The notes: a model not told the origin generated them from the sequence alone. 63,598 nucleotides of DNA, filler included, from Reclinomonas americana ATCC 50394 (GCA_048213135.1; 7 parts of 3 records of this genome joined end to end with filler, not necessarily neighbours in it), one strand, 5' to 3'. Shown: positions 10,987 to 42,413, counted from the first letter of the whole stretch. Numbers and translations are program-made.

Positions 10987-11829
10987 GTGACGGTGAGAGA
11001 GACTGAGATTGACAGCCAGACAGAGAGACTGAGACTGAGAGAGGCAGAGAGACTCAAAGAATGAACGTGTCTGTTTGCATGACCTTTTGCTTGCCAGTCT
11101 CTTTCTCTCTCTTTTGTCTTGTGTGTCTTCCTTTGTCTTTCGCTCTTTCACTCTTTCTTTCTTTGTTCGTTTCTATCGCAATCTTCAGTTGCAGTCATTT
11201 CTCGACTCAATCTCTCACTCTGTCTCTCTTGAAGTCTATCTCTCGCCTGATCGTGGAATGTGCCTCTGTCTGTCGCCCTCTTCCTCACCATCTCTCTACT
11301 TCCTCACTCTGTCTTGCTCTGCTCGTTCTTAGTGACTCAGTCTCGTTTCTTGCCTCTCTCTCTCTCTGTCTCTCTCTCACTCTCTCTTCCCACAGTCGTT
11401 CGCTGTTTGTTTGTCTCTCTTTTCTCTTTTTCTGTTTGTCTCTCTGCGAATCATTGTCAATCGCTCTCTCTCATCCTCACCTGACTTTCGAGCAGTCTGC
11501 AGTCGAAGTCTTCTTCTTTCTTTTCCCTTCTCACTCACGAATCCTGCGCTTGTTACTTGCAGTTTGTATGCTGCTTGCGTCAGTCTCTGCGTGTCGCTGT
11601 CACCTCCTTCTGTCTCTCTTTCTCACTTTATTGAAGTGTTACTCATCGCTGCCTTGCCTCTCCCCTGCAATACACGCAGATACTTCGGCTTCACGCGATC
11701 ACGTACGTAGTCTGTGCATTACTCTTTCTCGCGTCTTGACGGTGCACTCATATTACCACGTGTCTCTCGCTCCCCTATTTCCATTNNNNNNNNNNNNNNN
11801 NNNNNNNNNNNNNNNNNNNNNNNNNNNNN

Positions 11830-11841
11830 TTAATTAATTAA
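11830..11841. other. Artificial contig linker N-TTAATTAATTAA-N (also 24721, 36083, 48693, 60888, 62428)
   Basis: Identical palindromic 12-mer with stops in all six frames, centred in ~100-nt N blocks six times. Confidence 0.95.
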
Positions 11842-11936
11842 NNNNNNNNNNNNNNNNNNNNNNNNNNNNNNNNNNNNNNNNNNNNCATTCTTCGTCATTC
11901 ACCACTTTCTTGTTGGGTTGCCTTTTTCATGCGCAG

Positions 11937-12487
11937 CAAGAGAGCTTGGCAGATGGCGTTCGAAGGCGATATGACCGCGTTGCGCAAGCTAATAGTGCGT
12001 AAGGGCGCGCACATTCTGCTCAAGAAAGAGGAGATGCATGAGGGGGGCTCTGCATTTTATGCTGCCTCTCAGCAAGGCCATCTCTCTGTGTTGGAGTTCT
12101 TGTGGGAGGAGAGTGGTGTCGGTCCAGAACTCGCACTGGTGCCTAACGACTATGGCTTGACGCCACTGATGGTTGCTGCCATCAAAGGTCATCTGCAAGT
12201 GGTCGAGTGGTTGCTGGCCGATGAGCGACGATGTCCGCCGGAGATGGTGCGGGCGGTCGCCGATGATTGTGACGACCGTCCGCAATCCACTGCGCTGCAT
12301 TTTGCTGCCGATTGCGGTCATGAAGCTGTTGTTTGCCTGCTTGCCACCCGCTTTCCCGACCTCATTCCCATGGTCGACGATGAGGGCAAGACCGCGGCTG
12401 ATAGTGCTCGCGCCAGTGACAAGGAACGCGTGGCCGAGTCGCTCGATCGCCTTGCTGCACTGGTAGCGCCACCTCCTCGTCAACAAG
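11937..12487 (+). CDS. Isolated ankyrin-repeat exon of the ANK-CC-kinase family (probably the missing exon 2 of copy C)
   Basis: [68 protein letters not shown] acceptor and GT donor present; flanked by gaps. Confidence 0.9.
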
Positions 12488-13446
12488 GTATGNNNNNNNN
12501 NNNNNNNNNNNNNNNNNNNNNNNNNNNNNNNNNNNNNNNNNNNNNNNNNNNNNNNNNNNNNNNNNNNNNNNNNNNNNNNNNNNNNNNNNNNNNNNNNNNN
12601 NNNNNNNNNNNNNNNNNNNNNNNNNNNNNNNNNNNNNNNNNNNNNNNNNNNNNNNNNNNNNNNNNNNNNNNNNNNNNNNNNNNNNNNNNNNNNNNNNNNN
12701 NNNNNNNNNNNNNNNNNNNNNNNNNNNNNNNNNNNNNNNNNNNNNNNNNNNNNNNNNNNNNNNNNNNNNNNNNNNNNNNNNNNNNNNNNNNNNNNNAATG
12801 CACGCGAAGGGACATATAACTCTCACCGCTGCTGACGACTACCACTTCCGGCAGCTCGGTTCTGTACGGCAGCCATTCCTCTTCCTCTTCCCGCGCACGT
12901 GTCGACAAAGTGCAGTGATGGATAGGAGGGAAACACTTGTGTCCTATCACATTTTGATTTTCCGACCAGACGTCGACTTCAGCACTTGTCACTGCTCCGC
13001 GTGAAGCTGGGTTGCGTGACAACTCGAGCCAACGATGCACCCTTGTCACCAAGCCGAGCAGTTGGCCATGAAGCTGATGAGCGTCCAACTGATAACGCTG
13101 TAATCACTTTGATCATGAGCACAACTGAAGGACGTGCTGCCGCGGTTGCAAGGCGCCACGTATGCGCAACAATCGATCTTCACCATCGACACGCAGCCGT
13201 TTGCTTTACCGCCGATGAGCAAAAAGCGCTGATCTACGCCTTTCGAGCAACTGAGGTCTGAACGACAGCAGCTGCCGTGCCGTGCGACAAGCAGTAGTAT
13301 TCTCACTTCAGCATTCAGTTTCCCTCGAGTGATATTGAAGACGACCTGCATGACTGCATCATTGTGCAAACCATTAACACCATAAACAAGCGACAAAACC
13401 CTCTCCTCATTCCGCCTCTGTCTCTCCTCCTCAGTTCCTCTCCAAT

Positions 13447-16400
13447 TCACAGCTCCATGGTGAATCCACCCAGCCTTTCTCTTAGATCGCGCATCACTAT
13501 CCTTGCCTCCGCCGCAGTTGGTCTGTCATAGAACAGCGACATACATCTGCACAGAAAGCAAGCGAAGTGAGTGGTGAGTCAACTCTTCTCTCTCTCTTCT
13601 CCGTCGGACGCAACTGCACCCCCAACCGCAGCATCCCGCTCGCCACATCCGCCGGCCACTCACCCGCACTGAGGTCTGCCTCTTCTGCACCGTCCACCGA
13701 CTCGAGTGACCGTTCCCACCGCGCAGCCTGTCCCACCAGAGTGCGCGCCTCGCGACCCGTCAGCAGCTGCAACAAGATGACACCGAATGCGTGCAGATCC
13801 ATGGCTGCACGAATCTCGCCCGAGCGGAAGAAGAGTGGATCGGTGTAGTACGAGGAACCGGCGTGTTTGGCGGTGTGGTGGTGGGTCTGTGTGCGGGGAG
13901 AGAGGGGGATGAGAAGAGAATGGCGAAGAGGGATGCATTCTCTGTTCGTGAACTCATGCTCTCGACGTGCTCTCAAGACACAATCTCTACCCATGCGAGA
14001 GTGAACAATGATATTCTGTCTATTCTCTTTGCGACGAGGAAAAACGATGTGCAACTCATCCTCTCAACGTGGAGAGGCGAGTACACGTTTACCTTCCTCT
14101 CACCCGTTGCATAAATCACAGGTCCACGATCACGGAGACACGGAGAACGAGAGAGTATTCTCGTGCACCAGAGTAGCGAAGGAAATAAGTGTGGACACAA
14201 AATGAGCAAGGCGATCACGCTGAGGAATGGAGAAAGAGTGCACATGTACGACAAACATGAACGCTCCATCGATCGCGCTACAAGCACCTGCTAAGTTTCG
14301 ATGACAGTCATGGAAGAATCCACTCGACAAAGAGAGTGAGAAGAGGAAAGAAGACGAGCTCTGGGTCTCCAACAAGCAACTGTGCAAGGGGATCGACAGA
14401 GCGAGCACACCAACGTAGAAGAAGAAGAAAATCATCTCACTCTTCGACACTCACCTCACCCTCATCGAAAATGCGCGCAATGCCAAAGTCACCGAGTCGC
14501 GGCTCACATCGATTGTCAAGCAGAATGTTGGATGGTTTGAGATCGCGATGCACGACGCCATTCTGAAAGGAGAGAAAGTGAGGGTGATGGTGGAAGGCAG
14601 GTGAACATTCGGAAGGAGAGGGTAATGGTCCCCGAGAATGCATGACGACGAGAAAGGAACGACGGGCCGAGAAAGTATCGACAAATGGCAGATTGTGGGA
14701 GAGGTGGAAAAGAAGACAGCGGTGCATGTACATAGCAAATGATGGTATCCACAAGTGAACTGTCGAAAGTGAGAAGCACGACTAGAGAAAGACAAGAAAC
14801 AGAACCCAACGACAGACAACTCAAGGAAGACGAGTGCCCGCCCACTCTCCGCTGACGATAACCAAAGACACAACCAACTGAGCAGAGAAGAATCACACGA
14901 TGCTCTCGCATCAACCAAAGACACAAACAAAGATTGCTCTCGCCAAGCAGAGCAGCAGAGGGAGTCTGCTGCCTCACTCACCTGATGCAGGAAACACATG
15001 CCCTCAACAATTCCAAGTCCGATTTGCACACGCTCCACCACCGTCAGTGGCTGCATCCCGTCCTTCCGCTTCATGAGTCGCACCTCCAAATCTTGTCCAC
15101 TGTGTGCGAAGCGAGTGAGGCGAGAAGAAGAAGGGAATGCAGAGAGAAAAGGAAAGAAGCAAAAGGAGGAGACAATGCGCTTGGTTGAAGAATGACGATC
15201 TCTGGAAGGTGCTCATTGTTGTATATGGATCAGTGAAGATTCAGATTATTACAAGGAGTGAGAGAGAGAAAGAGACTCAATGAGGGGAGGTGGAGGAAAC
15301 AGCGGAGAGAGCAAGTAAACGGGGATGAACAGAAGAGAATCAACAAACCAACCGCCTCGTCACACTTCCCTCCACCAACTCACCGCATTGCTCGATACAC
15401 CAAACATCGCCCTCGCACACCGCCACCCTCCACCAGCGTGGAATAACCCAAAAGCGGAACAAGTCGGCGATGATGTAGTCGTCCAATCGTGTTCAACTGG
15501 CATGAGGAGAAGTGAGCAACAGCTTAATCCCATCCCCTCCTGCTGCAACAGACCTCGGCATCGTACGACTCCATCGCCGATGGCGCAGCACCATCCAGTC
15601 GCTTGACAGCCACCTCTTCCTCGTTCAGCCAACACAGATACACGTCACCATGACCGCCTTCGCCGGCCTTCAAGTCGTCGGAGAAGGATTCGGTGGCCCG
15701 CACAATGTCAGGCCAGGGGTATTCGCGCAGGCGATTGGGATCCGCGGCTGCAGATGGGGAAAGGAGAGAGAGAGGTTCAGAGCGATAGTACGCAGAGAAG
15801 AGGCGCATCGCTCTCTCGCACCTTGGAGAGAAGCCAGCTCGCGGCGCAAGCGACCGACCTCATGGGTGAGATCGACCCGCTCACTGGCAAACAGTTGCGC
15901 CTGCTGTTCCAGTTCACGCTGCAGCTGCGCGACACGCTGCTCCAATACGGCATTGGTTTGTCGAAGTTCCTCGTGCTGCCGCTCGAGTTGCTGCTGCTGC
16001 TGCTCTCGCTCACGGCGGTATGCGTCGTATTCATGCCGAAGATGAGAAATGATGGCGTCCTTGTCGGCGAGCTGTCGGGCCACCGCGGAGGAGTCGTCCA
16101 CAGCCTGCAGGTAACAAGGAGGTCGGAAAGAGTAGAGAGAAAGAGAGCGACAAGAAACCACCAGAGACGGTACGCGAATGGACTGATATGGGAAGGAATG
16201 CGCAGATTCTCACCTGCCGCTGTGGCGAAGCTGCTGCTGGCAAACGAGCAACTTTGATGATGGGGACGGAGTAGGAACACAAAGTCACGAAGTGCAGGTC
16301 AGCATGTGCAAGGGAGAGCCAACAGCACACGTCAGAGAAAGACCTGGAGGCGAAGATCGCGGCTGCAGTTGTTGTTGTTGTTGTTGACGAGGTGGTGCTG

Positions 16401-17059
16401 GTTGCGCAGCGAGGCGGTCGAGCAACTCGACCACGTGTTCGTGGCCTGTAATGCGTGCCCATTGAGCCGCCGTCCTGCCCTTCTTGTCGACTATGGGAAT
16501 GAGGTCGGAAAAGCGTGTGGCAAGGAGTCGCACAATGGCTTTGTGGCCCCAGGCGGCAGCCCAATGCAGTGCAGTGGACTGTGGATTCGGATGACGATCA
16601 TTGGTACCCGCCCGCACCATCTCCGGCGGACATCGTCGCTCATCGGCCAGCAACCACTCGACCACTTGCAGATGCTCTTCATCGGCAGCAACCATCAGCG
16701 GTGTCTGGCCAGTATCGGTGACCACCAGTGCAAGTTCCGGACCGACGCCACTCTCCTCCCACAAATACTCCAACACAGAGAGATGGCCTCCGTGAGCGGC
16801 ACGGTAAAATGCCGAGCAGCCCTTGTGCATCTCCTCTCTCTTCAGCAGAGTGTGTGCACCCTCGCGTACCACCAACTCGCGCAGTGCCTTCACATTGCCA
16901 TTCCACGCCATCTCCCAAGCTTTCTTCCTGCAAAACACAACAAGCAGAGAGAGTGAGTTTGCACAGAGATCGATCGGACAATATCACACACATTCACACA
17001 CGCACACACCTCTCAACACCACCACTCCCCCCCACAGCTCCCCTGCGCGCCGCGCTCAT
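13447..17059 (-). CDS. Ankyrin-repeat / coiled-coil / IRAK-Pelle-like protein kinase, copy A (10 exons, ~600 aa)
   Basis: MSAARRG..|KKAWEM..ANK exon (~16927-16344)|[13 protein letters not shown]|coiled-coil exon|..[113 protein letters not shown]..|[15 protein letters not shown]. All junctions GT-AG and in phase. Confidence 0.9.
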
Positions 17060-17559
17060 CCTCCCCAACAACGACAGGAACGAAGTCGTGACAGAAGTGT
17101 CCTGCAAGTTTCGTTCACTTTGTCGTTTTCGCTTTCTCCATTTCCCTCCATCACTCGCGACTCCACTAACGCACACAGCCATCGAACTTCACGTGTGTGA
17201 CAGAGTAAACACACGCGCAAACAGAACTCAACAAGTCGACGTTCATCACGACGTCGCAATTCCGTAAGTTCAAGCTTTAAGTACCCTCCGCCGACCGACG
17301 TATGAGGTTCCTCATCGCACACCTTCATTAACGCGCTCAACATTTCCCTGCTCTCATCGAACGACGACGTTGCCTCGACGGCTGTGCATGCACTGAACTC
17401 TCGCTCGGAGTCGCCAAGCGTGGCGGGCTGCACGGTGACTGGCCGCAGTCAACATCGACAGTCCTCCAGTCACCTGCCAACGGCACAGGCGACAGATGTG
17501 GCCACAAAAACAGGAGGGCACCTGGGTTGCAATGCACCTTCCATTCCCTTGTTGTCTCT

Positions 17560-20500
17560 TCACAGCTCCATGGTGAAGCAACCCAGTCGCTCTCGCAGAT
17601 CACGCATCACCGTCCTTGCCTCCGCCGCAGTTGGTCTGTCAAAGTACAGCGACATGCATCTGCACAGAGAGCAAGCGAAGTGAGTGGTGATTCAGCTTTC
17701 TCTCTCTCCTTCTACTCCTCCTCGAGCTCGCACGCAACTGCACTCCCAACCGCAACATCCCGCTCGCCACATCCGCCGGCCACTCGCCCGCAGCAAGATC
17801 CGCCTCCTCCGCACCGTCCGCCGACTCGAGTGACCGTTCCCACCGCGAAGCCTGTCCCACCACCGCACGTGCGTCGCGACCGGTCAACAACTGCAGCAAG
17901 ATGACGCCGAATGCGTGCAGATCCATGGCTGCACGGATCTCGCCTGCGCGTACGAACAGCGGGTCGATGTAGTACGAGGAGCCGGCGTGCTTGGCGGTGT
18001 GGTGGTGGGTCTGTGCGCGGGGGTATGAGAGGAGAACGACGAAGAAAGATGCATTCTCTATTCGTGAACTCATGCTCTCGCCGTGCTCTCAAGACACAAT
18101 CTTCACATATGAGAGTGCACAACGACAATCATTCCATTCTCTCTGCGACGAGAAATCGCTGTGCAACTCAACTTCATACCGCGGAGACAGTCGAGCGCAC
18201 GATCCTCTTTCTTTCACTCATGCACGAGTCGAGGGCGCGTGACCAATGAGACACGGAGAACGAGAGAGCATTCTCGTGCACCACAGTCGCGAAGGAAATG
18301 AGTGTGGACACAGAATGAGCAAGGCAATCACTCTCAGGAAAGGAGAAAGGGTGCATATGTACAACAAACATGAACGCTCCATCGATCGCGCTGCAAGCAC
18401 CTGCTAAGCTTCGATGACAGCCATGAAAGAATCCACTCGACACCGAGAATGAGAAGTGGAAAGAAGACGAGCTCTGGGTCTCCAACAAGCAACCCGATTC
18501 GAGATAGATAAAATGAGTGAAACGCACACCAACAACAAAGAAGTGGAGAAGTATCTTCCTGCTATTCTCCATCTGCTGACACGCACTCACCTCCCCCTCA
18601 TCGAATATGCGAGCAATACCAAAGTCACCGAGGCGTGGCTCACATCGGTTGTCAAGCAGAATGTTGGATGGTTTGAGATCGCGATGCACGACGCCGTTCT
18701 GATAGGAGAGAAAGTGAGGGTGATGGTGGAAGAGAAGAAGAACATTTGGAGAGAGAGGGCGATGGTCGCCGAGAATGCATGACGACGAGAAAGGAACGAC
18801 GGGCCGAGAAAGTATCGACAAATGGCAGATTGTGGGAGAGGTAGAGGAGAAGAAAAGAAAGATCACCAACACGTGCGTGCATGTACATAGCAAATGATGG
18901 CATCTACAAGTGAACTGTCGAGAGTGAGAAGAACGACTAGAGAAAAGACAGGAAACACAATCCAACGGCAGACAACTCAAGGAAGACGAGTGCCCGCCCA
19001 CTCTCCGCTGACAACAACCAAAGATACAGCCTAATGAACAAGAAAGAGCCTCACGATGCTCTCACGAAAAAAGGCACAAACAAGGATTACTCTCGCCAAC
19101 CAAGCCAGCCGAGGAGCTGTACATGGAGTCTGCCGCCTCACTCACCTGGTGCAAGAAACACATGCCCTCAACAATGCCGAGACCGATTTGCACACGCTCC
19201 ACCACCGTCAGTGGCTGCATCCCGTCCTTCCGCTTCATGAGTCGCACCTCCAGATCCTGTCCGCTGTGTGCGAAGCAAGGGAGGTGAGAGGAAGAAGGGA
19301 ATGCAGAGAGAATAGGAAAGAAGCAAAAGGAGGAGACAATGCGCTTGGTTGAATAAGAATGACGATCTCTGGAAGGTGCTCATTGTTGTGTGTGGAGCAG
19401 TGACGATTCAGATTATTATTTCTAGGAGAGAGAGGGAGAACGAGAAACAATGACGGGAGGTGGAGAGCAAACAGGGGGAGAGACGGATATGATGCAAGTA
19501 AACGGGAGTGCACAGAAGAGAATCAACAAACCAACCGCCTCGTCACACTTCCCCCACCGACTCACCGCATGGCTCGATACACCAAACATCGCCCTCGAAC
19601 ACCACCACCCTCCACCAGTGTGGAGTAACCCAGCAGTGGAACAAGTCGACGATGATGCAGCCGTCCAATCGTGTTCAACTGGCATGAGGAGAAGTGAGCA
19701 ACAGCTTAATCCCATCCCCTCCTGCTTCAACAGACCTCGGTATCGTACGACTCCATTGCCGATGGCGCAGCACCATCCAGTCGCTTGACAGCCACATCTT
19801 CCTCGCTCAGCCAACAAAGATACACCTCACCATGACCGCCCTCGCCAGCCTTAAGGTCGCTGGAGAAGGATTCGGTGGCGCGTAGAATGTCAGGCCAGGC
19901 GTACTCGCGCAGGCGATTGGGATCTGCGGCTGCGTGAGAGAAGGAGAGAGAGAGAGGTTCAGAGTGACGGTACGCAGAGAAGTGGTGCATCGCTCTCAGT
20001 CATACCTTGGAGGGTGGCTAGCTCGCGGCGCAAACGACTGTTTTCATGCGTGAGATCGACCCGCTCACTGGCAAACAGCTGCGACTGCTGTTCCAGTTCA
20101 CGCTGCAGCTGCGCGACACGCTGCTCCAATACGGCATTGGTTTGTCGAAGTTCCTCGTGCTGCCGCTCGAGTTGCTGCTGCTGCTGCTCTCGCTCATGGC
20201 GGTATGCGTCGTATTCATGCCGAAGATGAGACATGATGGCGTCCTTGTCGGCGAGCTGTCGGGCCACCGCGGAGGAGTCGTCCACAGCCTGCAGGTAACA
20301 AGGAGGTCGGAAAGAGTAGAGAGAAAGAGAGCGACAAGAAACCAACAGAGACGGTACGCGAATGGACTGATATTGTAAGGAATGCGCAGATTCTCACCTG
20401 CCGCTGTGGCGAAGCTGCTGCTGGCACACGAGCAAATTCGATGATGGGGACGGAGTAGGAACACAAAGTCACGAAGTGCAGGTCAGCATGTGCAACGGAG

Positions 20501-21228
20501 AGACAACAGCACAAGGCAGAGAAAGACCTGGAGGCGGGGGTCGCGGTTGCTGTTGTTGCTGTTGGGGTGGTGGCGCTGGTTGCGCAGCGAGGCGGTCGAG
20601 TAACTCGGCCACTTGCTGGTGGCCTTTGCCGCGTGCCCACTGAGCCGCCGTCTTGCCCGCCTTGTCGACCACGGGAACGAGGTCGGGAAAGCGCGTGGCG
20701 AGGAGTCGCACAATGGCTTCGTGTCCATTCAAGGCAGCCCAATGCAGAGCAGTGGACTGTGAAGTGATGCCATGATCATTGGTGACGGCCCGCACCATCC
20801 CCGACGGGCACCGTCGCTCATCGGCAAGCAACCACTCCACCACTTGCAGATGCCCATTGTAGGCAGCGATCATCAGCGGTGTCTCGCCATAATCGGTGAC
20901 CACCAGTGCGAGTTCCGGACCGACACCACTCTCCTCCCACAAATACTCCAACAAGGAGAGATGGCCTTTCACAGCGGCAGCATAAAATGCCGAGGAGCCA
21001 AGCTCATTCATCTCCTCTCTCTTCAGCAGAGTGCGTGCATCCTCACGCGCCACCAACTCGCGCAGTGCCTTCACATCGCCATTCCACGCCATCTCCCAAG
21101 CTTTCTTCCTAGCAAAGAGAGTGAGTTTGCTTCAGAGATCGATCGGACAACATCACACACATTCACACACGCACACACCTCCGAGCGCCACCACTCCCCC
21201 CCACAGCTCCCCTGCGCGCCGCGCTCAT
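17560..21228 (-). CDS. ANK-CC-IRAK/Pelle-like kinase, copy B
   Basis: Same exon structure and motifs as copy A; ANK exon ~21107-20528. Confidence 0.9.
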
Positions 21229-21718
21229 CCTCCCCAACAACGACAGGAACGAAGTCGTGACAGAAGTGTCCTGCAAGTTTCTTCCAACTTCGTCGTTTTC
21301 CCCTTTCCTTCCCTCGCTCACTCGCGGTTCGACTAACGCACACAGCCATCGAACTTCACGTGTGCGACAGAGTAAATACCCGCACAAACAGAACTGAACA
21401 AAGTCGACGTTCATTACGACGTCGCCATTCCGTAAGTTCAAACTTAAGTACCCTTCGCCGACCGACATATGAGGTTCCTTATCGCACACCTTCATTATCG
21501 TGCTCAGCATTCTCCTGCTCTCATTTCGAGCGACGACGTTGCCTCGATGGCTGGTCACTGAAATCTTGCTCGGAGTTACTCAGCAGGCTGCACGGTGACT
21601 GGCCGCAGTCAACATCGACAGTCCTCCAGTCACCTGCCAACGGCACAGGCGGCAGATGTGGCCACGAAAGCAGGAGGGCACCTGGATTGCAATGCACCTT
21701 CCACTCTCTTCCGTCTCT

Positions 21719-24676
21719 TCACAGCTCCATGGTGAAGCCACCGAGCCTCTCTCGCAGATCACGCATCACCATCCTCGCCTCCGCCGCAGTTGGTCTGTCA
21801 AAGTACAGCGACATGCACCTGTAATAGCCATTGTAAGTGGTGATCCAACTCTTCTCTCCCTCTTCTCCTCCTCGCACGCAACTGCACTCCTAACCGCAGC
21901 ATCCCACTCGCTACATCCGCTGGCCACTCACCCGCACTGAGGTCCGCCTCCTCTGCACCGTCCACCGACTCGAGTGACCGCTCCCACCGCGCAGCCTGTC
22001 CCACCACCGCACGTGCGTCGCGACCGGTCAGCAGCTGCAGCAAGATGACGCCGAATGCGTGCAGATCCATGGAGGTGCGAATGTCACCTGCGCGTACGAA
22101 AAGCGGGTCGATGTAGTACGAGGAGCCGGCGTGCTTGCAAGTGTGGTGGTGGGTCTGTGCGCGGGGGTATGAGAGGAGAACGACGAAGAGAGATGCATTC
22201 TCTGTTCGTGAACTCGCTCTCAAGTCACGATCGCTACACATGCGAGAGTGAATAATGACATTCTGTCTCTTCTCTCCGCGACGAGAATTGTTGTGCAACT
22301 CATCCTCTCAACGGGGAGACAGACGAGTACACGTTTACCTTTCTCTCACCTATTGCACAAATCACAGGTCCACGATCAAGGAGACTTGGAGTACGAGAGT
22401 AGTTCTCATGCACCAGAGTTGCGAAAAAAGTGAGCGGACACAGAATGAGCAAGGCGATCACTCTCAGGAATGGAGAAAGAGTGCACATGTACAACAAGCA
22501 CGAATGCCCCACTCATCGCGCTGCAAGCACCTGCTAAGTCTCGATGACAGAAACGAAAGAACCCACTCGACAGAGTGAGAAGTGGAAAGTGAGAATAGGT
22601 GCTCTGGGTCTCCAGCACGCAACTGCGCGATATCGATAAAACGTGCGCAGTGCGCCCCAAGAAAGGAGAGGAGAAGCATCTTCCCGTGCTATCATCCATC
22701 TTCCTGCACAGACACTCACCTCCCCTTCGTCAAAAATACGCGCAATGCCAAAGTCACCGAGGCGTGGCTCACATCGATTGTCAAGCAGAATGTTGGATGG
22801 TTTGAGATCGCGATGCACAACGCCGTTCTGAGAGGAGAGAGAGAGAGAGAAAGTGAGTGTGATGGTGGAAGAGAAGAAGAAGGCATTTGGAAGGAGAGGG
22901 CGATGGTCTCCGAGGATGCATGACGACGAGAAAGGAACGACGGGCCGAGAAAGTATCGACAAATGGCAGATTGTGGGTGAGATGGAAGAGAAGACAGGTA
23001 AGATCACCAACACGAGCGGTGCAAACACATAGCAAACGATGGTATCGACAAATGAACTGTCGAGAGTGAGAAGCATGCCTAGAGAAAAGACAAGAAACAG
23101 AATCCAACGACAGACAACTCAAGGAAGACGAGTGCTCGGCCAGCCTCGGCTGACAAAAACCAAAGACAACAGCGTTATCAACAAAGAAGAGTCTCTCGAT
23201 GCTCTCATCAACCAAAGACACATACAAAGATTACTCTCGCCAACAGGGAAACTGTCGCTTCACTCACCTGATGCAAGAAGCACATGCCCTCTACAATTCC
23301 GAGTCCGATTTGCACACGCTCCACCACCGTCAGCGGCTGCATCCCGTCCTTCCGCTTCATGAGTCGCACCTCCAGATCCTGTCCACTGCGTGCGAAAGCA
23401 AGGGAGGTGAGGAAGAAGGGGATGCAGAGAGAAATGGAAAGAAGCAAAAGGAGGAGACAATGCGCTTGGTTGAAGAAGAATGATGATCTCTGGAAGGTGC
23501 TCATTGTGTATGGATCAGTGAAGATTCAGATTATTATTCCTAGGAGAGAGAAAAAGAAAGAGAAACAATGAAGGGAGATGGAGAGCAAACAGGGGGAGAG
23601 ACATATATTATGCAAGTAAACGGGACTGCACAGATGAGAATCAATAAACCAACCGCCTCATCACACTTCCGCCACCAACTCACCGCATGGCTCGATACAC
23701 CAAACATCGCCCTCGAACACCACCACCCTCCACCAGTGTGGAGTATCCCAGCAGCGGAACAAGTCGGCGATGATGTAGTCGTCCGATCGTGTTCAACTGG
23801 GGAGAGCGAGAATGAGCGAGTGACAATCCCAATACCATCTCCTTCTGGCATCACGTACTTCCGCATCGTACGACTCCATTGCCGATGGCGCAGCACCATC
23901 CAGTCGCTTGACAGCCACCTCTTCCTCGTTCAGCCAGCACAGAAACACGTCACCTTGGCCGCCTTCGCCGGCCTTCAGGTCGTCGGAGAAGGATTCAGTG
24001 GCGCGTAGAATGTCGGGCCACGCGTATTCGCGCAGGCGATTAGGATCGGCGGCTGCAGATGGGGAAAGGAGAAAGAAAGGTTTAGAGTGACGGTTCGAAG
24101 AGCAGAAATGCGTCTCTCTCACGCGCACCTTGGAGGGTGGCAAGCTCGCGGCGCAAACGACCGACCTCATGGGTGAAATCGACTCGCTCACTGGCAAACA
24201 GTTGCGTCTGTTGTTCCAGTTCACGCTGCAGCTGCGAGACACGCTGCTCCAACATGACATTAGCCTGTCGAAGTACCTCATGCTGCCGCTCATACTCCCG
24301 CAGCTGCTGCTCTCGCTCGTGTCGATATGCGTCGTATTCACGCTGCAGATGAGCGACACGCTGCTCGTGCTCTCGTCGCTGCTGCTCAGCTTGTCGCTCA
24401 TACTCCCGCTGCTGCTGTTGTTCTCGCTCCTGTCGACATGCATCGTATTCGCGCTGCAGACTGGCAATGGTGGAGTCCTTGTCGGCGAGCTGACGCGCCA
24501 TCGCAGCAATGCCGTCAACGGCCTGCAAGGAACGAACGCGAGAGGGTGAGAGAAAAGTGAGTCGAAGGCTGTCAGGTGGAGGGCGACTCACCTGCTGCTG
24601 CTGTTTGGCTGAGGAACACATCAAAAGGAAACGTCATCAAGCGATGGAACAAAAAACGCAATCGCCAACGAAAGGG
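21719..24676 (-). CDS. ANK-CC-IRAK/Pelle-like kinase, copy C (5' exons missing at gap; long coiled coil)
   Basis: All kinase exons and an extended coiled-coil exon are present; sequence stops at the gap inside the intron following the ANK exon. Confidence 0.85.
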
Positions 24677-25435
24677 NNNNNNNNNNNNNNNNNNNNNNNN
24701 NNNNNNNNNNNNNNNNNNNNTTAATTAATTAANNNNNNNNNNNNNNNNNNNNNNNNNNNNNNNNNNNNNNNNNNNNAGTGCACGCGAAGGGACACATCAC
24801 TCTCACCGCTGCTGACGACTACCACTTCCGGCAGCTCGGTTCTGTACGGCAGCCATTCCTCTTCCTCTTTCCGCGCACGCGCGATGCAACAAAAAAAGGG
24901 AAACACCTCGTGTCCTGCTGATTCTCCGACGTCGACTTTAGTTCTTGTCACTGCTCCGCGTGAAGCTGGGTTGCGTGACAACTCGAGCCAACGGTGCATC
25001 CTTGTCACCAAGCCGCGCAGCTGACCATGGAGCTCAAGAATCCTGAACTAATAAGCTGTAAGCGCATTATGCACCTCTCACGTTGTGCTGCTGCGGTTGA
25101 AAGGCGCCACACATGCGCGACTGTCGGTCTTCACTGTCGAAACGCAGCCGTTTGCTTTTACCACCGATGAGCAAGGGCGCTGGTCTGCGCCATTCGAGCA
25201 ACTGAGGTCTGAACGACAGAAGCTGTCGTCAGCACCTCAACTGGTGCCTGGAAACCAGCAACTCACAATGCCGTGCAACAAGCAGTAGTATTCTCACTTC
25301 AGCATTCAGTTTCCCTCGAGTGACATTGAAGACGACCTGCATGACTGCATCATTGCAAACCATTAACACCATAAACAAGCGACAAAACCCTCTCCTCATT
25401 CCGCCTCTGTCTCTCCTCCTCAGTTCCTCTCCAAT

Positions 25436-28400: not shown

Positions 28401-29008
28401 CACACTCGCGTGCCCATTCAGCCGCCGTCTTGCCCTCATAGTCGACCATGGGAATGAGGTCGGGATAGCGAGTGGCAAGGAGTCGCACAATGGCTTTGTG
28501 GCCCCAGGCGGCAGCAAAATGCAGTGCGGTGGACTGTGGATTGTTGGAACGATCATTGGTGACCGCCCGCACCATCTCCGGTGGACATCGTCGGTCATCG
28601 GCAAGCAACCACTCCACCACTTGCAGATGTCCATTGCAGGCAGCCACCATCAGCGGTGTCTCACCACAGTCGTTGACCACTAGTGCGAGTTCCGGACCGA
28701 CACCACTCTCCTCCCACAAGAACTCCAACACAGAGATATGGCCTTGTTGAGCGGCACAGTAAAATGCCGTGCAGCCATCGTCTATCTCCTCTCTCTTCAG
28801 CAGAGTGCGCGCACCCTCACGTGCCACCAACTTGCGCAGTGCCTTCACATTGCCGTCAAATGCCATATCACATGCTTTCGGCCTGCAAAACACAACAAGC
28901 AGAGAGAGTGAGTGCGCACAGAGGTCGATCAGACACACACATTCACACACACACACACCTCCGAGCGCCACCACTGCCCCCCACAGCTCCACTCCGCGCC
29001 GCATTCAT
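25436..29008 (-). CDS. ANK-CC-IRAK/Pelle-like kinase, copy D
   Basis: MNAARSG..|[10 protein letters not shown]..; same exon structure; [12 protein letters not shown] and DFG intact; ends GGFTMEL*. Confidence 0.9.
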
Positions 29009-29409
29009 TCTCCCCTTGCAGCGAGATAGGAGATCGACAGGGAGTGTGTCCTGCAAGTTTCATTCCAAACTTTATGGTCTTCGCTTTTTTCCATTTCCGT
29101 TTCCCTCGCTCGCTCGCGGTTCGACTAACGCACACAGCCATAGAACTTCACGCGCGTGACAGGAAAAAACACACGGGCAAACAGAACTCAACAAAGTCGA
29201 CGTTCATCACGACGTCGCCCTGTCATTCCCTAATTCAATGAGTACCGTAAGTTCAAGCCTAAGTACAATACCCCTCGCCTCCCGACATATGAGGTTCCTT
29301 ATCGCACACCTTAAGTTATCGTGCTCGGCATTCCCCTGTTCTCATGTCGAACGCCGTTGCCTCGATGGCTGGGCACTGAAACCTCGCTCGGAGTCGCCAA
29401 GCGGGCTGC

Positions 29410-29542
29410 ACGCAGCGGTGACTGACCGCAGCCAATATCGACAGTCCTCCAGTCACCTGCCAACGGTGCAGGCGACAGCTGTGGCCACAAGCGTCGGAGG
29501 GCACCTGGATTGCAATGCACCTTCCACTCCCTTGTTGTCTCT
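29410..29542 (-). pseudogene. Decayed C3HC4 (IAP/MDM2-type) RING coding remnant just after the kinase stop (homologues at ~17435-17559 and ~21590-21718)
   Basis: With two frameshifts reads [41 protein letters not shown]. Confidence 0.55.
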
Positions 29543-32500
29543 TCACAGCTCCATGGTGAAGCCACCCAGCCTTTCTCGCAGATCACGCATCACCATCCTC
29601 GCCTCCGCTGCAGTTGGTCTATCAAAGTACAGCGACATGCATCTGCACAGAGAGCAAGCGAAGTGAGTGGTGAGTCAACTCTTCTCTCTCTCTTCTCCGT
29701 CGGACGCAACTGCACCCCCAACCGCAGCATCCCACTCGCCACATCCGCCGGCCACTCGCCCGCAGCAAGATCCGCCTCCTCGGCACCGTCCGCCGACTCG
29801 AGTGACCGCTCCCACCGCGCAGCCTGTCCCACCAGAGAGCGCGCCTCGCGACCGGTCAACAACTGCAGCAAGATGACGCCAAAAGCGTGCAGATCCATGG
29901 CTGCACGAATCTCGCCCGAGCGGAAGAAGAGTGGATCGGTGTAGTACGTGGAACCGGCGTGTTTGGCGGTGTGGTGGTGGGTCTGTGCGCGGGGAGAGAG
30001 GGGGATGAGAAGAGAATGATGAAGAGAGATATTCTCTGCTCGTGAGCTCATGGTCTCGCCGTGCTCTCAAGACAAAAATCTCCACCCATGCGAGAGTGCA
30101 GAACGACAATCTTTCCATTCTCTCTGCGACGAGAATAGTTGTACAACCCATCCTCTCAACGTGGAGATGCACGAGTACACGTTTACCTTTCTCTCACCCA
30201 CTGCACAAATCACAGGTCTACGATCAAGGAGACACGGAGTATGAGAGTAGTTCTCATGCACCAGAGTTGCGAAGGAAATGAATGTGGACACAGATGAGCA
30301 AGGCAATCACTCTCAGGAAAGGAAAAAGGGTGCACATGTACAACAAACATGAACGCTCCATTGATCACGCTGCAAGCACCTGCTAGGTTTCGATGACAGT
30401 CATGAAAGAATCCACTCGATAACGAGAGTGAAAAGTGGAAAGAAGACGAGCTCATCTCAGGGATCGGAATAATGAGTGAAACGCACACCAACAACAGCAG
30501 AAGAGAATCATCTTCCTGTGCAGTCATCCATCTGCCGAGGCGCACACTCACCTCCCCCTCATCGAAGATGCGCGCGATGCCAAAGTCTCCAAGACGTGGC
30601 TCGCATCGATTGTCAAGCAGAATGTTGGATGGTTTGAGATCGCGATGCACGACGCCGTTCTGAGAGGAGAGAGGAGAGAGGGTGACGAAGGAAGGAAACA
30701 TTTGGAAGGAGAGGGCGATGGTCTCCGAGAATTCATGATGACGGGAAGGAACATGCCATCCGAGGGAAGGTTGTGGGAGAGGTGGAAAAGAAGACAAGGA
30801 AGATCACCAACGCACGTGCGGTGCAAACACATAGCAAATGATGACATCTACAAGTGAACTGTCGAGAGTGAGAAGCACGACGAGAGAGGAGGCAAGAGAC
30901 ACAATCCAACGACTGGCAACTCAAGGAAGACGAGTACCTGCCCACTCTCCGCTGACAACAACCAAAGACACAGCCTGATCAACAAAGAAGAGTCGCTCGA
31001 TGTTTCCAAAGACACATACAATGATTGCTCTCGCCTATACGAGAGGTCGCGCAGGGAGTCTGCCGCCTCACTCACCTGGTGCAAGAAACACATGCCCTCG
31101 ACAATGCCGAGACCGATTTGCACACGCTCCACCACCGTCAGTGGTTGCATCCCGTCCTTCCGCTTCATGAGTCGCACCTCCAAATCTTGTCCACTGCGTG
31201 CGAAGCACGGGAGGTGAGAGGAAGAAGGGAACGCAGAGAGAAATGGAAAGAAGCAAAGGAGGAGACAATGCGCTTGGTTGAAGAATGACGATCTCTGGAA
31301 GGTGCTCATTGTTGTGCATGGATCAGTGAAGATTCAGGTTATTATTTCAAGGAGTGAGAGAGAGAAAGAGACACAATGAGGGGAGGTGGAGAGCGAACAG
31401 CGGAGAGACAGATATGATGCTAGAAAGCGGGAGCGAACCAACCGCCTCGTCACACTTCCCCCACCAACTCACCGCATGGCTCGATACACCAGACATCGCC
31501 CTCTCACACCACCACCCTCCACCAGCGTGGAGTATCCCAGCAGCGGAACAAGTCGGCGATGATGTAGTCGTCCAATCGTGTTCAACTGGCATGAGGAGAA
31601 GTGAGCAACAGCTTAATCCCATTCCCTCCTGCTTCAACAGACCTCGGCATCGTACGACTCCATCGCCGATGGCGCAGCACCATCCAGTCGCTTGACAGCC
31701 ACCTCTTCCTCGTTCAGCCAGCACATATACACCTCACCATGACCGCCCTCACCGGCTTTCAGGTCGTCGGAGAAGGATTCAGTGGCGCGTAGAATGTCGG
31801 GCCAGGGGTATTCGCGCAGGCGATTGGGATCTGCGGCTGCGTGACAGAAGGAGAAAGAAAGGTTTAGAGTGACGGTTCGAAGAGCAGAAATGCGTCTCTC
31901 TCACGCGCACCTTGGAGGGTGGCAAGCTCGCGGCGCAAACGACTGTTTTCATGCGTGAAATCGACTCGCTCACTGGCAAAGAGTTGCGCCTGCTGTTTCA
32001 ATTCACGCTGCAGCTGCGCAACACGCTGCTCTGCGATGGCGAGAGCCTGTCGAAGTACCTCATGCTGCCGCTCATGTTCCCGCAGCTGCTGCTCTCGCTC
32101 GTGTCGATATGCGTCGTATTCACGCTGCAGATGTGCGACACGCTGCTCGTGCTCTCGTCGCTGCTGCTCAGCTTGTCGCTCATACTCCCGCTGCTGCTGT
32201 TGTTCTCGCTCCTGTCGACATGCATCGTATTCGCGCTGCAGACTGGCAATGGTGGAGTCCTTGTCGGCGAGCTGACGCGCCATCGCAGCAATGTCGTCCA
32301 TGGCCTGCAAGAAACGCACGCAAGAGGGTGAGAGAAGAGTGAATCGAAGGCTGTCAGGTGGAGGGCGACTCACCCGCTGCTGCTGTGCGACTGAGGAACA
32401 ATCAAAAGGAAACGTCATCAAGCGATGGAACAAAAAACGCAGTCGCCAAAGAAAGGGCACACCTTGCTGATGAGATGGCGGCGCTGATTGTGCAGTGAGG

Positions 32501-33141
32501 CGGTCGAGCAACTGGGCCACTTGTTGGTGACCGTTGCGGCGTGCTCTCTGAGCCGCCGTCTTGCCCTCATAGTCGACCATGGGAATGAGGTCGGGAAAGC
32601 GAGCGGCGAGGAGTCGAACAATGGCTTCGTGGCCCCAGGGGGCTGCGAAATGCAGAGCAGTGGACTGTGAACTCAAGTGACGGTCATTGGTGACCGCCCG
32701 CACCATCTCTGGCGGACATCGTCGCTCATCGGCCAGCAGCCACTCGACCACTTGCAGATGTCCCTTGCAGGCAGCCGCCATCAGTGGCGTCATGCCATTG
32801 TCGGTGACCAACAGTGCGAGTTCCGGACCGACGCCACTCTCCTCCCACAAATACTCCAACACAGAGAGATGGCCTTCGTACGCGTGAGCGGCATAGAAAA
32901 ATGCCGAGCCGTTTTTACGCATCTCATCTCTCTTCAGGAGAGTGCGTGCGCCCTCACGTGCCACCAACTCGCGCAGTGCCTTCACATCGCCAAGCAAAGC
33001 CATCTCCCAAGCTTTCAGCCTGCAAAACGCAACAACAAGCAAAGAGAGTGACTTTGCACAGATCAATCAGACTGCAAACAACAGATCAAGGCACGCGCAC
33101 CTCTTTCCTCCACCGTTGCCTCTGTTCTGTGCAGCACTCAT
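29543..33141 (-). CDS. ANK-CC-IRAK/Pelle-like kinase, copy E (long coiled coil)
   Basis: MSAAQNRG..|[10 protein letters not shown]..; kinase exons intact; ends GGFTMEL*. Confidence 0.9.
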
Positions 33142-33529
33142 TCTTCACACACTCACAGGGCTCCACACACAAGGTTGATCACACGGCCCCGATCACAAGG
33201 GCAGAGTTGGCGGAGTGGCAACGAACGAGAAAGATGTCCTGCATGCGTTGTGGATCGTCGGAACATTCAGGGAATGAACGTCCTTTGCCAGCGTTGGGTG
33301 GTGCGGCAAGTACGACATGCAGAATGGGAGCACACGGGAGAGGGGGTATGACGTCGACGTCGACGATGCTGAAGTTTGTGCCGGTTCGGCGTCAGCTGAA
33401 AGTCGGCTCACCAGTGGCCACCAGAACTTGTGCTGACAAAGTTCTCATGCCTGAGCCCCATCAACAGTTTTGACTCAGACAGGAGGGATGTATCCATTGT
33501 CTGTTGTTGTTGTTGTTGACTTTACTTCA

Positions 33530-35331
33530 AAGCTTCTTGACGAGTCCACTCAGCTTCTCTCGGAGATCCCGCATTGCTGACAATGGAATAGCGGCGCGCA
33601 TCTACACAAAAGAATGAGAGGCATCCCTTTCCCATCTCTTCTCCTCACAGAGACGCAACTGCACACCCCCCTTCCAAAGTATCGGTTGTACTGATCGTTC
33701 CCGTCTGGCCTGCGCAGCACTTGCACCAGATTCACCTCGAGTGTAGTGCAGCGTGTTGGAGTTCGGCCAGTTCGCGGCGCAAGCGCTCGATTTCACAGTT
33801 TTGATCGGCAGACTTCTGGACAAGTGCCTGAGCTTGCTGCTCTACATCGCGTTGCAGCTGGGCGACTCGCTGCTTTGCGATGGCGTGCAACCGTTGAAGT
33901 TCTTCGTGCTCTCGTCGCTCATGTTTCCGCTGTTGCTGTTCTCGCCGTCGTCGGTATGGATCAATCAAGGCGTCATGCTCAGAGCTGACGCACCACGCGA
34001 CACCGTCCAATGGCTGCAGGGAAACAGGGAGGTGGGCAAGAGGGCGAGAGAGGGAGGGAGGGAGGATAGGAGGGAGGGAGGGAGAGAGAAAAGAGAGAGG
34101 AAGTGAGCGAAAGAGAGTGAAAGAGAAAGAAGATGAGAGTAAAAAGAGAGAAACGAGAGAAAAAGAAAGAGAAAGAGGAGAGAGAGAGAGAGAGAGAGAG
34201 TAAAGAAGAATCTGGAGATGCATGAGAGGAAGAGAGACAGAGGCAGATCTGAAAAGAGAATGCGCGCGCGAGAGAGAGAGAGTGAAGAACACGAGCGAAT
34301 GAGTGTGCAGTGAGTGTACGCAAGGGCATGCATGGGACAGAGACAGGCAGCCAAAGAGAGATAGTGAGTGAGATAAACGTTGAGAGAGAGAGACTGACTG
34401 ACAGACAGAGAGAGGAGGGGGGGGGGAGAAAGACAAAACAGAGAGAAAAAGAAAAGTAGTGCGAGAGAGAGAGAGAGAGTGACAAGTAGCGTGCTCACAG
34501 ATGATACACGAAGGAACTTGGTCGCAAAGCACACGCAGTGTCTCACCTGACGTTGTGGGGACGCTGCTGTGGGTTGGTTCGGGAAATCGCGACACGAAAT
34601 GCAAAGTCAGGAAACGAGAGACAACAGCTAATGAAGACAACGAGAGACAAATATACCTGGAGGTGGAGATCGCGGCTGCTGTTCTTGTCGATGTGCTGGT
34701 GCTGGCTGCGGAGCGAGGCGATCGAGCACCTCGGCCACTTGGTGGTGGTCGTTGTCGCGTGCCACCTCAGCCGCCGGCTTGCCTTCCTTGTCAACCATGG
34801 GTACGAGATCGGGGAAACGAGTGGCAAGGAGTTGCACAATGGCTTCGTGGCAACTCCAGGCAGCGAAATGCAGTGCAGTCCACTGTTCATAGTCGACTAC
34901 CTCTGACGCACATCGTTGCTCATCGGCCAGCAACCATTCCGTCACATGCAAATGTCCTTGCTCGGCAGCTACCATGAGTGATGTCATGCCATAGTCAGTG
35001 ACCAACTGTGCGAGTTGTGGCCCGACGCCACTCTCCTCCCACAGAAACTCCAACACAGAGAGGTGGCCTTTCCACGCGGCACAGTAGAATGCCGAGGCGC
35101 CCTCATCCATCTCCTCCTTGTTCAGCAGAATGTGCGTGCCCTCATGCGCCACCAACTCGCGCAGTGCCCTCACGTCGCCGTAATAAGCCATCGCACATGC
35201 TCTCAGCCTTTTACCATGAAGCAGCCAGTGTGCGTTCCATAAGACTGACATCGAAACAACGAATTGCACATACACACGCACCCCTCATCGCCACCACGTG
35301 CATCCTTGCCTCTCCTCCGTGCGGCACTCAT
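33530..35331 (-). pseudogene. Kinase-less copy F (ANK + degenerate coiled coil + kinase C-terminal remnants); pseudogene or decoy
   Basis: Open ANK exon ~35206-34657. The coiled-coil frame stops at 33732. Only AQARRERSV..GVQLR and MRDLREKLSGLVKKL* remnants follow; N-lobe, HRD and DFG exons are absent. Confidence 0.75.
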
Positions 35332-35624
35332 TCTTGAACACACAAACAGCTGACAGCGTTGTCCTGCAAGATTGTTCCGACGAAGTCACGTCACGCTTCA
35401 TTGCGAAGCAGTGGTGCGTCTTACGTAGCAGACGCACGAAGCCAACAGCAAGTGCACTTTACCGACTGCGACGTTTCCATCTCCTGCTTGAGATTGACCT
35501 GGCTCGTTCCGACACCTCGCGATCGGTCTCAGCAGCCGTAGCTGGTTAACGTTGCTCTGCAGTCAAGTGAAATTCACAGCCAAAGAGGCTGCGCTGGCCG
35601 CCGAACGCGACCTCGTGTTCATCT

Positions 35625-35745: not shown

Positions 35746-35822
35746 AGGATGGGATGCATGAAGGGTCCTCTTTGTCATGCAATGCATTTTTCCGACTTAC
35801 TTTTTTGTTTATCTTTTCTCAC

Positions 35823-35944: not shown

Positions 35945-35992
<48 letters not shown>

Positions 35993-41352: not shown

Positions 41353-42413
<1,061 letters not shown>

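Follow-up and report, generated by a model that had tools for sequence, protein, structure and literature searches.

In a 63,598-nucleotide stretch of DNA from Reclinomonas americana ATCC 50394 (GCA_048213135.1), which consists of seven parts of three genome records joined end to end with filler and is referred to below as the window, we describe a family of tandemly arranged genes predicted to encode an ankyrin-repeat (ANK) domain, a long helix plus a protein kinase domain within a single chain. The kinase domains have been held nearly constant by purifying selection, whereas positive selection has acted on the surface with which ANK repeats typically bind their partners. This domain-specific pattern, a frozen kinase beside a selected ANK surface, is the evolutionary signature of a recognition repertoire. 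With about as much belief as doubt, we interpret the locus as a multigene family of cytoplasmic "recognition kinases" of ~590-620 amino acids (aa), each composed of an ANK domain, a helix and an RD kinase. An explicitly immune role, as implied by the term "innate-immune receptor" used in an earlier note on this DNA, we consider unlikely.

When one unit of the array (A, 13301-17300) was compared with the whole window by blastn, four further minus-strand units of ~4 kb, 83-90% identical to it in nucleotide sequence, were found beside it, head to tail: B (17559-21466), C (21718-24504), D (25292-29218) and E (29542-33062). A weaker match restricted to the ANK region lies at 34655-35173 (75%; F), and an inverted ANK match at 11933-12486 (79%; Z). 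The related tandem copies reported in the earlier note were thus recovered. Its count of six genes of one architecture has to be amended: the array holds seven ANK exons against five kinase domains, and four genes (A, B, D and E) are complete, C being cut at exon 1, F devoid of a kinase and Z a lone ANK exon. Intergenic spacers measure 626-676 nucleotides (nt). Alignment of the five units A-E rendered a single nine-exon model with splice sites conserved in every copy, under which the predicted open reading frames (ORFs) of the four complete genes run open from ATG to TGA. Gene structures, splicing and 5' ends are model predictions drawn from sequence alone. The copies are as follows.

13447..16911, minus strand: gene A, nine exons, 593 aa, spliced model open; exons 16911-16344 (ANK), 16236-16214 (micro-exon), 16104-15822 (helix), and for the kinase 15747-15554, 15496-15384, 15099-14982, 14562-14455, 13886-13612 and 13546-13447.
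17560..21092, minus strand: gene B, nine exons, 592 aa, whose exons were used for the PDB searches and (ANK, helix) for structure prediction; exons 21092-20528, 20420-20398, 20288-20006, 19929-19736, 19678-19566, 19263-19146, 18698-18591, 18010-17736 and 17659-17560.
21719..24608, minus strand: gene C, exons 2-9 open; exon 1 (ANK) lost in a contig linker.
25436..28866, minus strand: gene D, nine exons, 587 aa; exons 28866-28302, 28194-28172, 28061-27794, 27717-27524, 27443-27331, 27035-26918, 26516-26409, 25873-25599 and 25535-25436.
29543..33003, minus strand: gene E, nine exons, 619 aa; exons 33003-32463, 32390-32374, 32304-31911, 31836-31643, 31585-31473, 31193-31076, 30659-30552, 29982-29708 and 29642-29543.
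33732..35191, minus strand: F, ANK exon 35191-34657, micro-exon 34566-34547, helix exon from 34013 to the stop at 33734-33732 (located by tblastn and from the sequence).
33530..33670, minus strand: kinase remnant of F, comprising the end of exon 8, the last intron and exon 9, with the tail frame "..AMRDLREKL..".
11953..12486, plus strand: Z, lone inverted ANK exon at a contig edge, 178 codons, open; Pfam Ank_2, E 8.7e-18.

Exon 1 comprises the entire ANK domain, as the earlier note had stated, and its ATG sits 20 nt past a CAG acceptor-like site. The ANK exon and the helix exon are separated by exon 2, a micro-exon of 23 nt that measures 17 nt in C and E; the helix is encoded by exon 3 and the kinase by exons 4-9. 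Seven introns are of the GT-AG type, and the last one has a GC donor in the model (TT/GCGT...CAG/, slashes marking the splice sites), so that the last intron of every copy is probably GC-AG. This donor was chosen because the available GT donors are in the wrong phase, because read-through shifts the frame in four of the five copies (A, B, C and E) and because only that join restores the last exon, where most of the changes that separate the copies are synonymous. With the join made, "...LGVQLCMSL(F/Y)(Y/F)DRP..." aligns without gaps to the C-lobe of a plant kinase. Two alternatives to the model were dropped: alternative 3' ends, given the frame change on read-through in A, B, C and E and the wrong phase of the GT donors, and an upstream coding exon, the 5' flank of E being unrelated to the others yet the context of its ATG unchanged. 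In copy D the last intron happens to be in frame, and read-through there would add ~22 residues (at the site equivalent to A 13612/13546).

The ANK and kinase domains named in the earlier note both found support in a Pfam scan of nine ORFs. Ankyrin families (Ank_2/Ank/Ank_4) scored above their cut-offs in all four ANK ORFs scanned, with Ank_2 E-values from 3.6e-22 to 8.7e-18. Pkinase (E 1e-10) and PK_Tyr_Ser-Thr were matched in the ORF that carries the HRD and DFG motifs; the other short exons matched no family, and three of the nine ORFs were without any family. An AlphaFold2 (AF2) model of the ANK exon, computed from the alignment of six copies, has a predicted local distance difference test score (pLDDT) of 89.2 and consists of an N-cap helix followed by four helix pairs, that is, four ankyrin repeats. 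Its nearest solved folds in a Foldseek search (at least 500 matches at E<=0.001) are designed ankyrin proteins (DARPins), at a TM-score of ~0.8 on the target and 29-34% sequence identity. Between copies the ANK domains are 64-78% identical, and all six ANK ORFs are open.

The kinase domains, in contrast, can be aligned over 303 codons without a single indel and are 93-97% identical in amino acid sequence, with a synonymous divergence (dS) of 0.26-0.41 and dN/dS of 0.05-0.10. They are under strong purifying selection, and from these dS and dN/dS values it follows that the copies are old, separately maintained functional paralogues, neither alleles nor pseudogenes. For the helix, dN/dS is 0.18-0.41.

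Where the variation of the ANK domain falls was assessed on surface positions fixed before the variation was viewed. Repeat positions 2, 3, 5, 13, 14 and 33, reportedly those randomised in designed ankyrin proteins, were located in each repeat from its GH anchors, 26 positions in all. On these fall 13 of the 20 hypervariable columns (at least four residues among the six copies; Fisher p 3.7e-8), and mean pairwise identity is 38% at surface positions vs 77% elsewhere in the domain. In the AF2 model the variable columns map to the loop before each first helix and to the final two residues of that helix. Codon-based site models (GY94, F3x4 codon frequencies) were then fitted to the ANK exon of six sequences (162 codons). 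The model with a positively selected class (M2a) was preferred over M1a with a likelihood-ratio test (LRT) statistic of 43.07 (p 4e-10) and an omega2 of 3.8 on 16% of codons. Twenty sites had a posterior probability >0.8, and 14 of them coincide with the 25 pre-defined surface positions present in the data. The statistic was 47-57 under two other resolved topologies and a star tree, and 36 with the four complete genes alone, omega2 ranging from ~3.8 to 7 across the ANK tests. The same code applied to the other two domains returned LRT values of 0.00 for the kinase and 0.07 for the helix. The ANK exon has thus evolved under site-specific positive selection concentrated on the canonical ANK binding surface, which is concave, of the DARPin type and different in each copy. 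What was found is a paralogous repertoire with diversifying selection on a ligand-binding surface joined to a conserved signalling domain, as read from six sequences with a history of gene conversion. The earlier note had pictured a sensor-oligomeriser-kinase family expanded by tandem duplication; the tandem family is borne out and its sensor part gains support from positive selection that is confined to the ANK domain and lies on the predicted binding surface.

The third element of that picture, the "oligomeriser", is a role we infer for the helix. AF2 predicts the helix exon of gene B as one uninterrupted helix over residues 2-93 (pLDDT 95.5). It displays leucine-zipper-like heptads with Leu at 40/47/54/61, together with Val58/Leu65 and an Asn at 51, and hydrophobic residues take up 52% of the a/d positions in the best register vs 24% of the others. 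The Pfam families matched by the helix ORF were exclusively of coiled-coil type, all below threshold. We take the predicted helix to be a putative coiled coil and not a single charged helix. Its length is ~92-131 residues across copies, C and E having in common an insertion of 37 codons. No transmembrane segment was found under the chosen ATG, the highest Kyte-Doolittle 19-residue mean being 1.39, within the aF helix of the kinase, and no signal peptide, the N-terminus being hydrophilic under that ATG (the 5' end is itself a model); the earlier note had come to the same view on both. Since it has neither, the protein is of the cytoplasmic (RLCK) type and not a transmembrane RLK.

To which kinase family the catalytic domain belongs was approached by searching the kinase exons of gene B one at a time against PDB structures with phmmer. 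For exon 4, which carries the pre-G-loop "AT..FS", the G-loop and VAVK, all 20 matches were plant RLK/RLCK or IRAK1/4 kinases (best E 1.8e-5), and for exon 5 all six were BRI1/SOBIR1 (best E 0.0099). Exon 8, from the activation segment to subdomain X, had 90 matches at E<=1, the best being PBL2 (E 1.9e-4); IRAK1 and IRAK4 are among the matches, and in the best 60 of the 90 the first other family is RIPK3, at rank 54 and E 0.08. A profile of exon 8 was also run against 5.8 billion proteins, of which 3150 were scored as candidates, and returned four matches at E<=10: P0008 (Phaseolus) and P0009 (Melastoma), each with a kinase and a U-box; P0007, a kinase-only fragment that aligns identically to P0008; and P0010, an unrelated Pkinase/APH protein. 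At E<=0.01 the matches comprise only plant U-box kinases and the fragment whose alignment is identical to that of one of them. By blastp, spliced B and P0008 are 27% identical over 358 columns, from the helix through the kinase, and identity to the plant matches is 27-35%. The two proteins have in common the motifs "DL(S/A)AGEWP", "Y.DP", "LLQLLTG" and "LVY", and the alignment with the plant proteins takes in both the pre-G-loop "AT..FS" and the C-lobe "AGEWP ... C ... RP". A Tyr gatekeeper is a hallmark of IRAK. Here "CLVYRAM" aligns Tyr-on-Tyr with "SLVYEYI" of P0008, and the Tyr is invariant in all five copies. The first 57 PDB rows for P0008 itself are plant RLK/RLCK/IRAK kinases, followed by CTR1 and RIPK4, and judged by these rows P0008 is a typical RLK/Pelle kinase.

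All five copies retain the G-loop GEGG(H/Q)G, VAVK, the aC Glu ("YD.EL"), HRD, the catalytic Asn, DFG and the subdomain XI Arg ("DRP"), and the kinase motifs quoted in the earlier note are present in the spliced models. In these motifs the domain is a catalytically complete RD Ser/Thr kinase, which may be active. At family level it is probably RLK/Pelle/IRAK-like and nearest to RLCK-IXb, an assignment drawn from exon-wise ranks at modest similarity. The ORFs scanned with Pfam contained no death domain, TIR or NOD, for which reason the protein is not an orthologue of IRAK/Pelle.

The window is a chain of contigs. Its G+C content is ~55%, it is eukaryotic DNA, and it contains six artificial 100-bp linkers, each composed of 44 N, TTAATTAATTAA and 44 N; TTAATTAATTAA is twelve letters long and lies within a six-frame-stop linker (N-run table and alignment letters). 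The order and orientation of the pieces across the joins are accordingly unverified. According to the N-run table the linkers occupy 11786-11885, 24677-24776, 36039-36138, 48649-48748, 60844-60943 and 62384-62483, and the array region consists of two contigs, 11886-24676 and 24777-36038. The features that delimit its arrangement are these.

11786..11885, no strand: contig linker, left end of the contig with Z, A, B and C.
24677..24776, no strand: contig linker that separates C from D; adjacency and orientation across it are a statement of the assembly.
12797..13446, minus strand: 3' flank of gene A, homologous to the gene D 3' flank at 24777-25435 (blastn).

By blastn the two 3' flanks are 81% identical over 483 bp and 97.6% over 169 bp, and neither B nor C nor E has the flank common to A and D. 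In appearance the two contigs are either paralogous blocks or the two ends of one rearranged array. The continuous array of ~23 kb described in the earlier note is not established, the linker cutting it between C and D; the arrangement demonstrated is one of two blocks, Z-gap-A-B-C and D-E-F, with two to three tandem copies each, Z being followed by 304 N (12493-12796). In the second block, F is an open ANK-helix ORF of 278 aa with a 20-nt micro-exon and no kinase. Downstream of it nothing of the kinase is left but traces of exon 9 and of the end of exon 8, and its kinase has therefore been deleted; F may be a pseudogene of recent origin, or a naturally truncated form that serves as regulator or decoy.

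In the mechanism that we propose, the ANK groove of each paralogue would bind a different, fast-changing protein partner, and the helix would pair two chains. Binding of the partner would alter the geometry or the occupancy of the dimer, upon which trans-autophosphorylation would take place on the activation loops of the RD kinases, and these would phosphorylate one downstream target shared by all copies. F, which has no kinase, could form pairs with the full-length proteins and act in them as decoy or regulator. The strength of selection on the surface suggests that the partner is itself changing, be it a pathogen, a symbiont, a host or a polymorphic self protein.

Several points weigh against the interpretation of these genes as recognition kinases. 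Splicing, 5' end and expression of the copies are models, and any link of the genes to infection, symbiosis or self/non-self recognition is hypothetical. The Glu of the APE motif is replaced by Leu in all five copies (YY[I/T]DPL), which is unusual for an active kinase. As to the family of the kinase, all exon-level E-values are modest; exon 6 had a single PDB match, PBL2 at a non-significant E of 0.34; and for exon 7, which spans HRD to DFG, the best 60 of 2379 PDB matches are MAP kinases and NEK2, so that the catalytic-loop to DFG motif, which the earlier note took as typical of IRAK, is generic. Resemblance to IRAK/Pelle/RLK holds for four of the five exons searched and for the best library matches. 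The candidates scored with the exon-8 profile, moreover, had been pre-selected by shared 5-residue words. Relatives of the family are absent from the protein libraries, Atlas and metagenome scans as searched here: the ANK-helix ORF (400 aa) found generic ANK proteins only, at E>=9.1e-6 among 8000 candidates scored; the read-through of exons 8-9 had no relative at E<=0.001 among 5593 candidates; a metagenome scan gave 117 pattern matches to the exon-8 profile, none of them confirmed, and five loci for the ANK exon, all generic ANK with no kinase adjoining. In the ESM Atlas, exon 8 led to clusters of kinase fragments (commonest phylum Streptophyta) and the ANK-helix ORF to generic ANK proteins, ANK and kinase never occurring together; these Atlas results are leads only. 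That no relatives came up is probably due to a lineage that is poorly sampled and lacks annotation, and not to the family being truly unique. On the side of the selection tests, the site-model code was custom-written, the data are six paralogues, and naive (NEB) instead of Bayes (BEB) empirical Bayes posteriors were used; gene conversion, in addition, can inflate tests of this kind.

These points lend themselves to other readings of the locus. Foremost among these, the proteins might be ordinary substrate-targeting or scaffold kinases in which the ANK domain recruits endogenous partners and the duplicates have been sub- or neo-functionalised, without any recognition of non-self, host or symbiont, a possible though doubtful view. 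It predicts an anatomy identical to that of recognition kinases, bursts of positive selection after duplication are common in young gene families, and the immune-type domains (death, TIR, NOD) are missing from the ORFs scanned; the plant RLCK-IXb relatives include non-immune members as well, such as PUB35 in abscisic acid signalling (available part of the PUB33 preprint, 2026). Set against this, selection is strong (omega2 ~3.8-7), recurs in all copies and lies on the ligand-binding surface while kinase and helix are frozen, a pattern that the accessible literature describes for recognition receptors such as fungal NLR ANK repeats and not for housekeeping scaffolds; and at a dS of ~0.3 the copies are old, so a short post-duplication burst does not account for it. 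The variability of the ANK surface might instead be non-adaptive, through relaxed constraint or as a by-product of gene conversion that has homogenised all but the ANK exon. The parsimony count for surface codons is 80.8 non-synonymous vs 15.2 synonymous changes, an omega of 1.23 that is indistinguishable from, and not significantly above, 1 (P 0.26). Tests of the M2a type are known to yield false positives under recombination. When A is compared with B, identity is lower in the ANK exon (84%) than in the introns adjoining it (96%) and in the 5' flank (92%), and dS differs between domains (helix 0.11, ANK 0.25, kinase 0.38), which shows that gene conversion has been at work in patches. We nevertheless consider this explanation improbable: M2a outperforms M1a, which itself allows sites with omega=1, at LRT values of 36-57 under every topology including the star tree; framework codons of the same exon are constrained (114 vs 108 changes, omega 0.35; different from the surface at Fisher p 1e-8); the six ANK ORFs have stayed open; and the overlap of 14 of the 20 selected sites with positions preset from ANK structure is independent of the conversion problem.

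There is likewise only a slim chance that the kinase lies outside RLK/Pelle/IRAK, in another TKL or lineage-specific family that resembles RLKs in a few motifs. The catalytic-loop exon with its MAPK/NEK2 matches, the weak exon-level matches (best E 1.8e-5, exon 6 non-significant) and the 27-35% identity of the best plant match would fit such a family, as would the richness of protist kinomes in lineage-specific TKL clades, which make up, for example, 60% of Phytophthora TKLs in the available part of the study concerned. Yet four exons (4, 5, 6 and 8) name only plant RLK/RLCK or IRAK kinases before RIPK3 appears at E 0.08 among the matches listed, the library proteins at E<=0.01 are the plant U-box kinases and the identically aligned fragment, and the plant alignment spans the whole domain, "AT..FS" and C-lobe included. 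An artefactual array of collapsed alleles or haplotigs, mis-stitched contigs or pseudogenes is very improbable. In its favour, the contigs are stitched, the array is interrupted by a linker, homology is seen between 3' flanks of the two blocks, and one copy is kinase-less and another a lone exon. The units nonetheless follow one another head to tail and without gaps within each contig, at least two of them complete in either (A-B-C from 13.3 to 24.6 kb, D-E from 25.3 to 33.1 kb). They differ by a dS of 0.26-0.41 and by indels such as the 37-codon helix insertion of C and E, and the pairs A-D, B-E and C-F are never the closest, so that alleles are excluded; a kinase dN/dS of 0.05-0.10 with intact ORFs shows that A-E are not pseudogenes either.

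Taken as recognition kinases, the proteins appear to have their closest known counterpart in the plant PUB-VI/RLCK-IXb system, with which they have the helix-kinase core in common and from which they differ at both ends. The plan of that system, in the accessible part of a 2026 preprint on Arabidopsis PUB33, is a USP domain, a long alpha-helical domain, a kinase and a U-box; for PUB33, the prediction is that the helix dimerises as a coiled coil, and in yeast two-hybrid assays the protein associates with itself. Members of this group are targeted by pathogen effectors and modulate immunity (available parts of the PUB33 preprint and of PMC12803775). Like the proteins described here, they have a cytoplasmic RLK/Pelle-type kinase without a transmembrane segment and a long helix directly before the kinase, and the alignment of B with P0008 begins in the pre-kinase helical region of the latter. 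At the N-terminus the plant proteins have a USP, often degenerate according to the accessible preprint text (none was detected in P0008 at E<=0.01), where the R. americana proteins have ANK repeats; at the C-terminus they have a U-box, where the ORFs here end ~30 residues past subdomain XI at a TGA conserved in all five copies. Several plant members are non-RD kinases or pseudokinases (HGN in P0008), whereas all copies here have HRD, and the descriptions of the plant proteins, as far as accessible, include no hypervariable sensor. The helix-kinase core of the architecture, which the earlier note did not know as a described family, therefore has a precedent. Nevertheless, an ANK - coiled coil - RLK/Pelle family was not described in the open-access literature searched (main texts, supplements excluded).

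IRAK1-4 and Pelle belong to the same broad kinase family, as seen from the PDB matches of exons 4 and 8, and have the Tyr at the gatekeeper position. They are cytoplasmic kinases, activated by induced proximity within an oligomer, and are recruited into the Myddosome via an N-terminal death domain. They differ from the proteins described here, whose N-terminal 170 residues fold as ANK in the model and in whose ANK and helix ORFs no Pfam death domain was found. With ANK repeats and a helix in the place of the death domain, the protein would carry its own recognition module and would not be an adaptor-dependent relay.

Ankyrin repeats and kinases occur together elsewhere: ILK, TNNI3K and RIPK4/ANKK1 are ankyrin-kinase proteins. 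Further examples, in the parts of the sources available, are the plant RING-kinase-ANK protein KEG (PUB33 preprint) and PITG_06288 of Phytophthora infestans, which has 15 ANK repeats N-terminal to an oomycete-specific TKL kinase. All combine ANK and a TKL-group kinase in one cytoplasmic chain, and ILK, TNNI3K and PITG_06288 also have the ANK-then-kinase order. They differ in the family of the kinase (MLK-like, RIPK or the oomycete subfamily OS1) and in having no long helix between the two domains; they are single-copy or without described tandem arrays, and positive selection on the ANK surface is not known to be described for them. A parallel for such selection comes from fungal NLR-like (STAND) proteins, in whose ANK repeats positive selection was found on the concave surface, on inner helices as well as on the beta-hairpin/loop (Dyrka et al. 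2014, PMC4986451, available part). Fungal NLRs with ANK, TPR or WD repeats are likewise paralogous repertoires with presumed ANK sensors, some of them with a protein-kinase effector (same source). They are built around a NACHT/NB-ARC NTPase core and, in the portion of the literature available, vary by highly conserved internal repeats and by repeat number; the R. americana proteins have no NTPase, a repeat number fixed at four and variation between tandem gene copies.

As to the distribution of such kinases, the available part of a Phytophthora study lists five IRAK-class kinases, all predicted to be inactive and four with a transmembrane segment, and reports none in Thalassiosira, Plasmodium or Paramecium. 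Dictyostelium has no IRAK-class kinases, and RLKs are present in glaucophytes and some green algae and not in red algae, again according to the accessible portions of the sources.

Outside the array the window contains little that can be named. A PLD-like HKD exon of the PLD6/Zucchini kind (PLDc_2, E 2e-13) lies at 40277-40612 within a plus-strand region, 38945-40612, in which a long ORF precedes it in the same frame with a single stop between the two. Its best library matches are only 47% identical, and the four of 20 looked up that bore a name or source tag are two dinoflagellate transcriptomes, a pseudoscorpion PLD6 and an unlabelled transcriptome contig. A short tubulin-like N-terminal exon ("..VGQCGNQ..") is located at ~2632-2740 on the minus strand, its Pfam Tubulin match (E 6.6e-4) being below the cut-off. 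Three plus-strand ORFs, at 55689-56333, 60957-61718 and 63119-63598, match PH, RING-finger and Armadillo/HEAT families weakly, with scores around or under the Pfam cut-offs; they probably belong, as exons, to unrelated genes. Low-complexity tracts, long and rich in CT/GA and CA/GT, run through the window and give rise to many spurious "SLSLSL" and "CVCVCV" ORFs, and an (AG)72 microsatellite occupies 41854-41996. A dinoflagellate spliced-leader motif had no match in the window, and no Rfam family was matched.

Plants and animals both rely on RLK/Pelle/IRAK kinases for signalling in innate immunity, and elsewhere these kinases are few and unstudied. Here, a genome that is neither plant nor animal appears to hold at least five apparently active copies fused to ANK domains under positive selection at their surface. 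It would be a bold and, on our assessment, rather unlikely conclusion that intracellular one-chain receptors have evolved independently in a protist as a germline repertoire, each with a hypervariable, DARPin-like ANK sensor, a dimerising helix and an RLK/Pelle/IRAK-type kinase, and with no NOD, TIR or death domain. If true, this would be a third recruitment of these kinases into recognition or immunity, besides those in plants and animals, and the RLCK-IXb helix-kinase module would predate the plant lineage or have moved beyond it. Should the ANK partners turn out to be ordinary cell proteins, the locus would still be an example of domain-specific selection in a tandem family. If the recognition function is confirmed, the family would offer a simple soluble two-module receptor, a binder and a kinase, for study. 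It would then also help to gauge the frequency with which kinases of this family came to serve in recognition, and provide an outgroup to the helix-kinase proteins of plant RLCK-IXb, which are poorly understood and are targeted by pathogen effectors.

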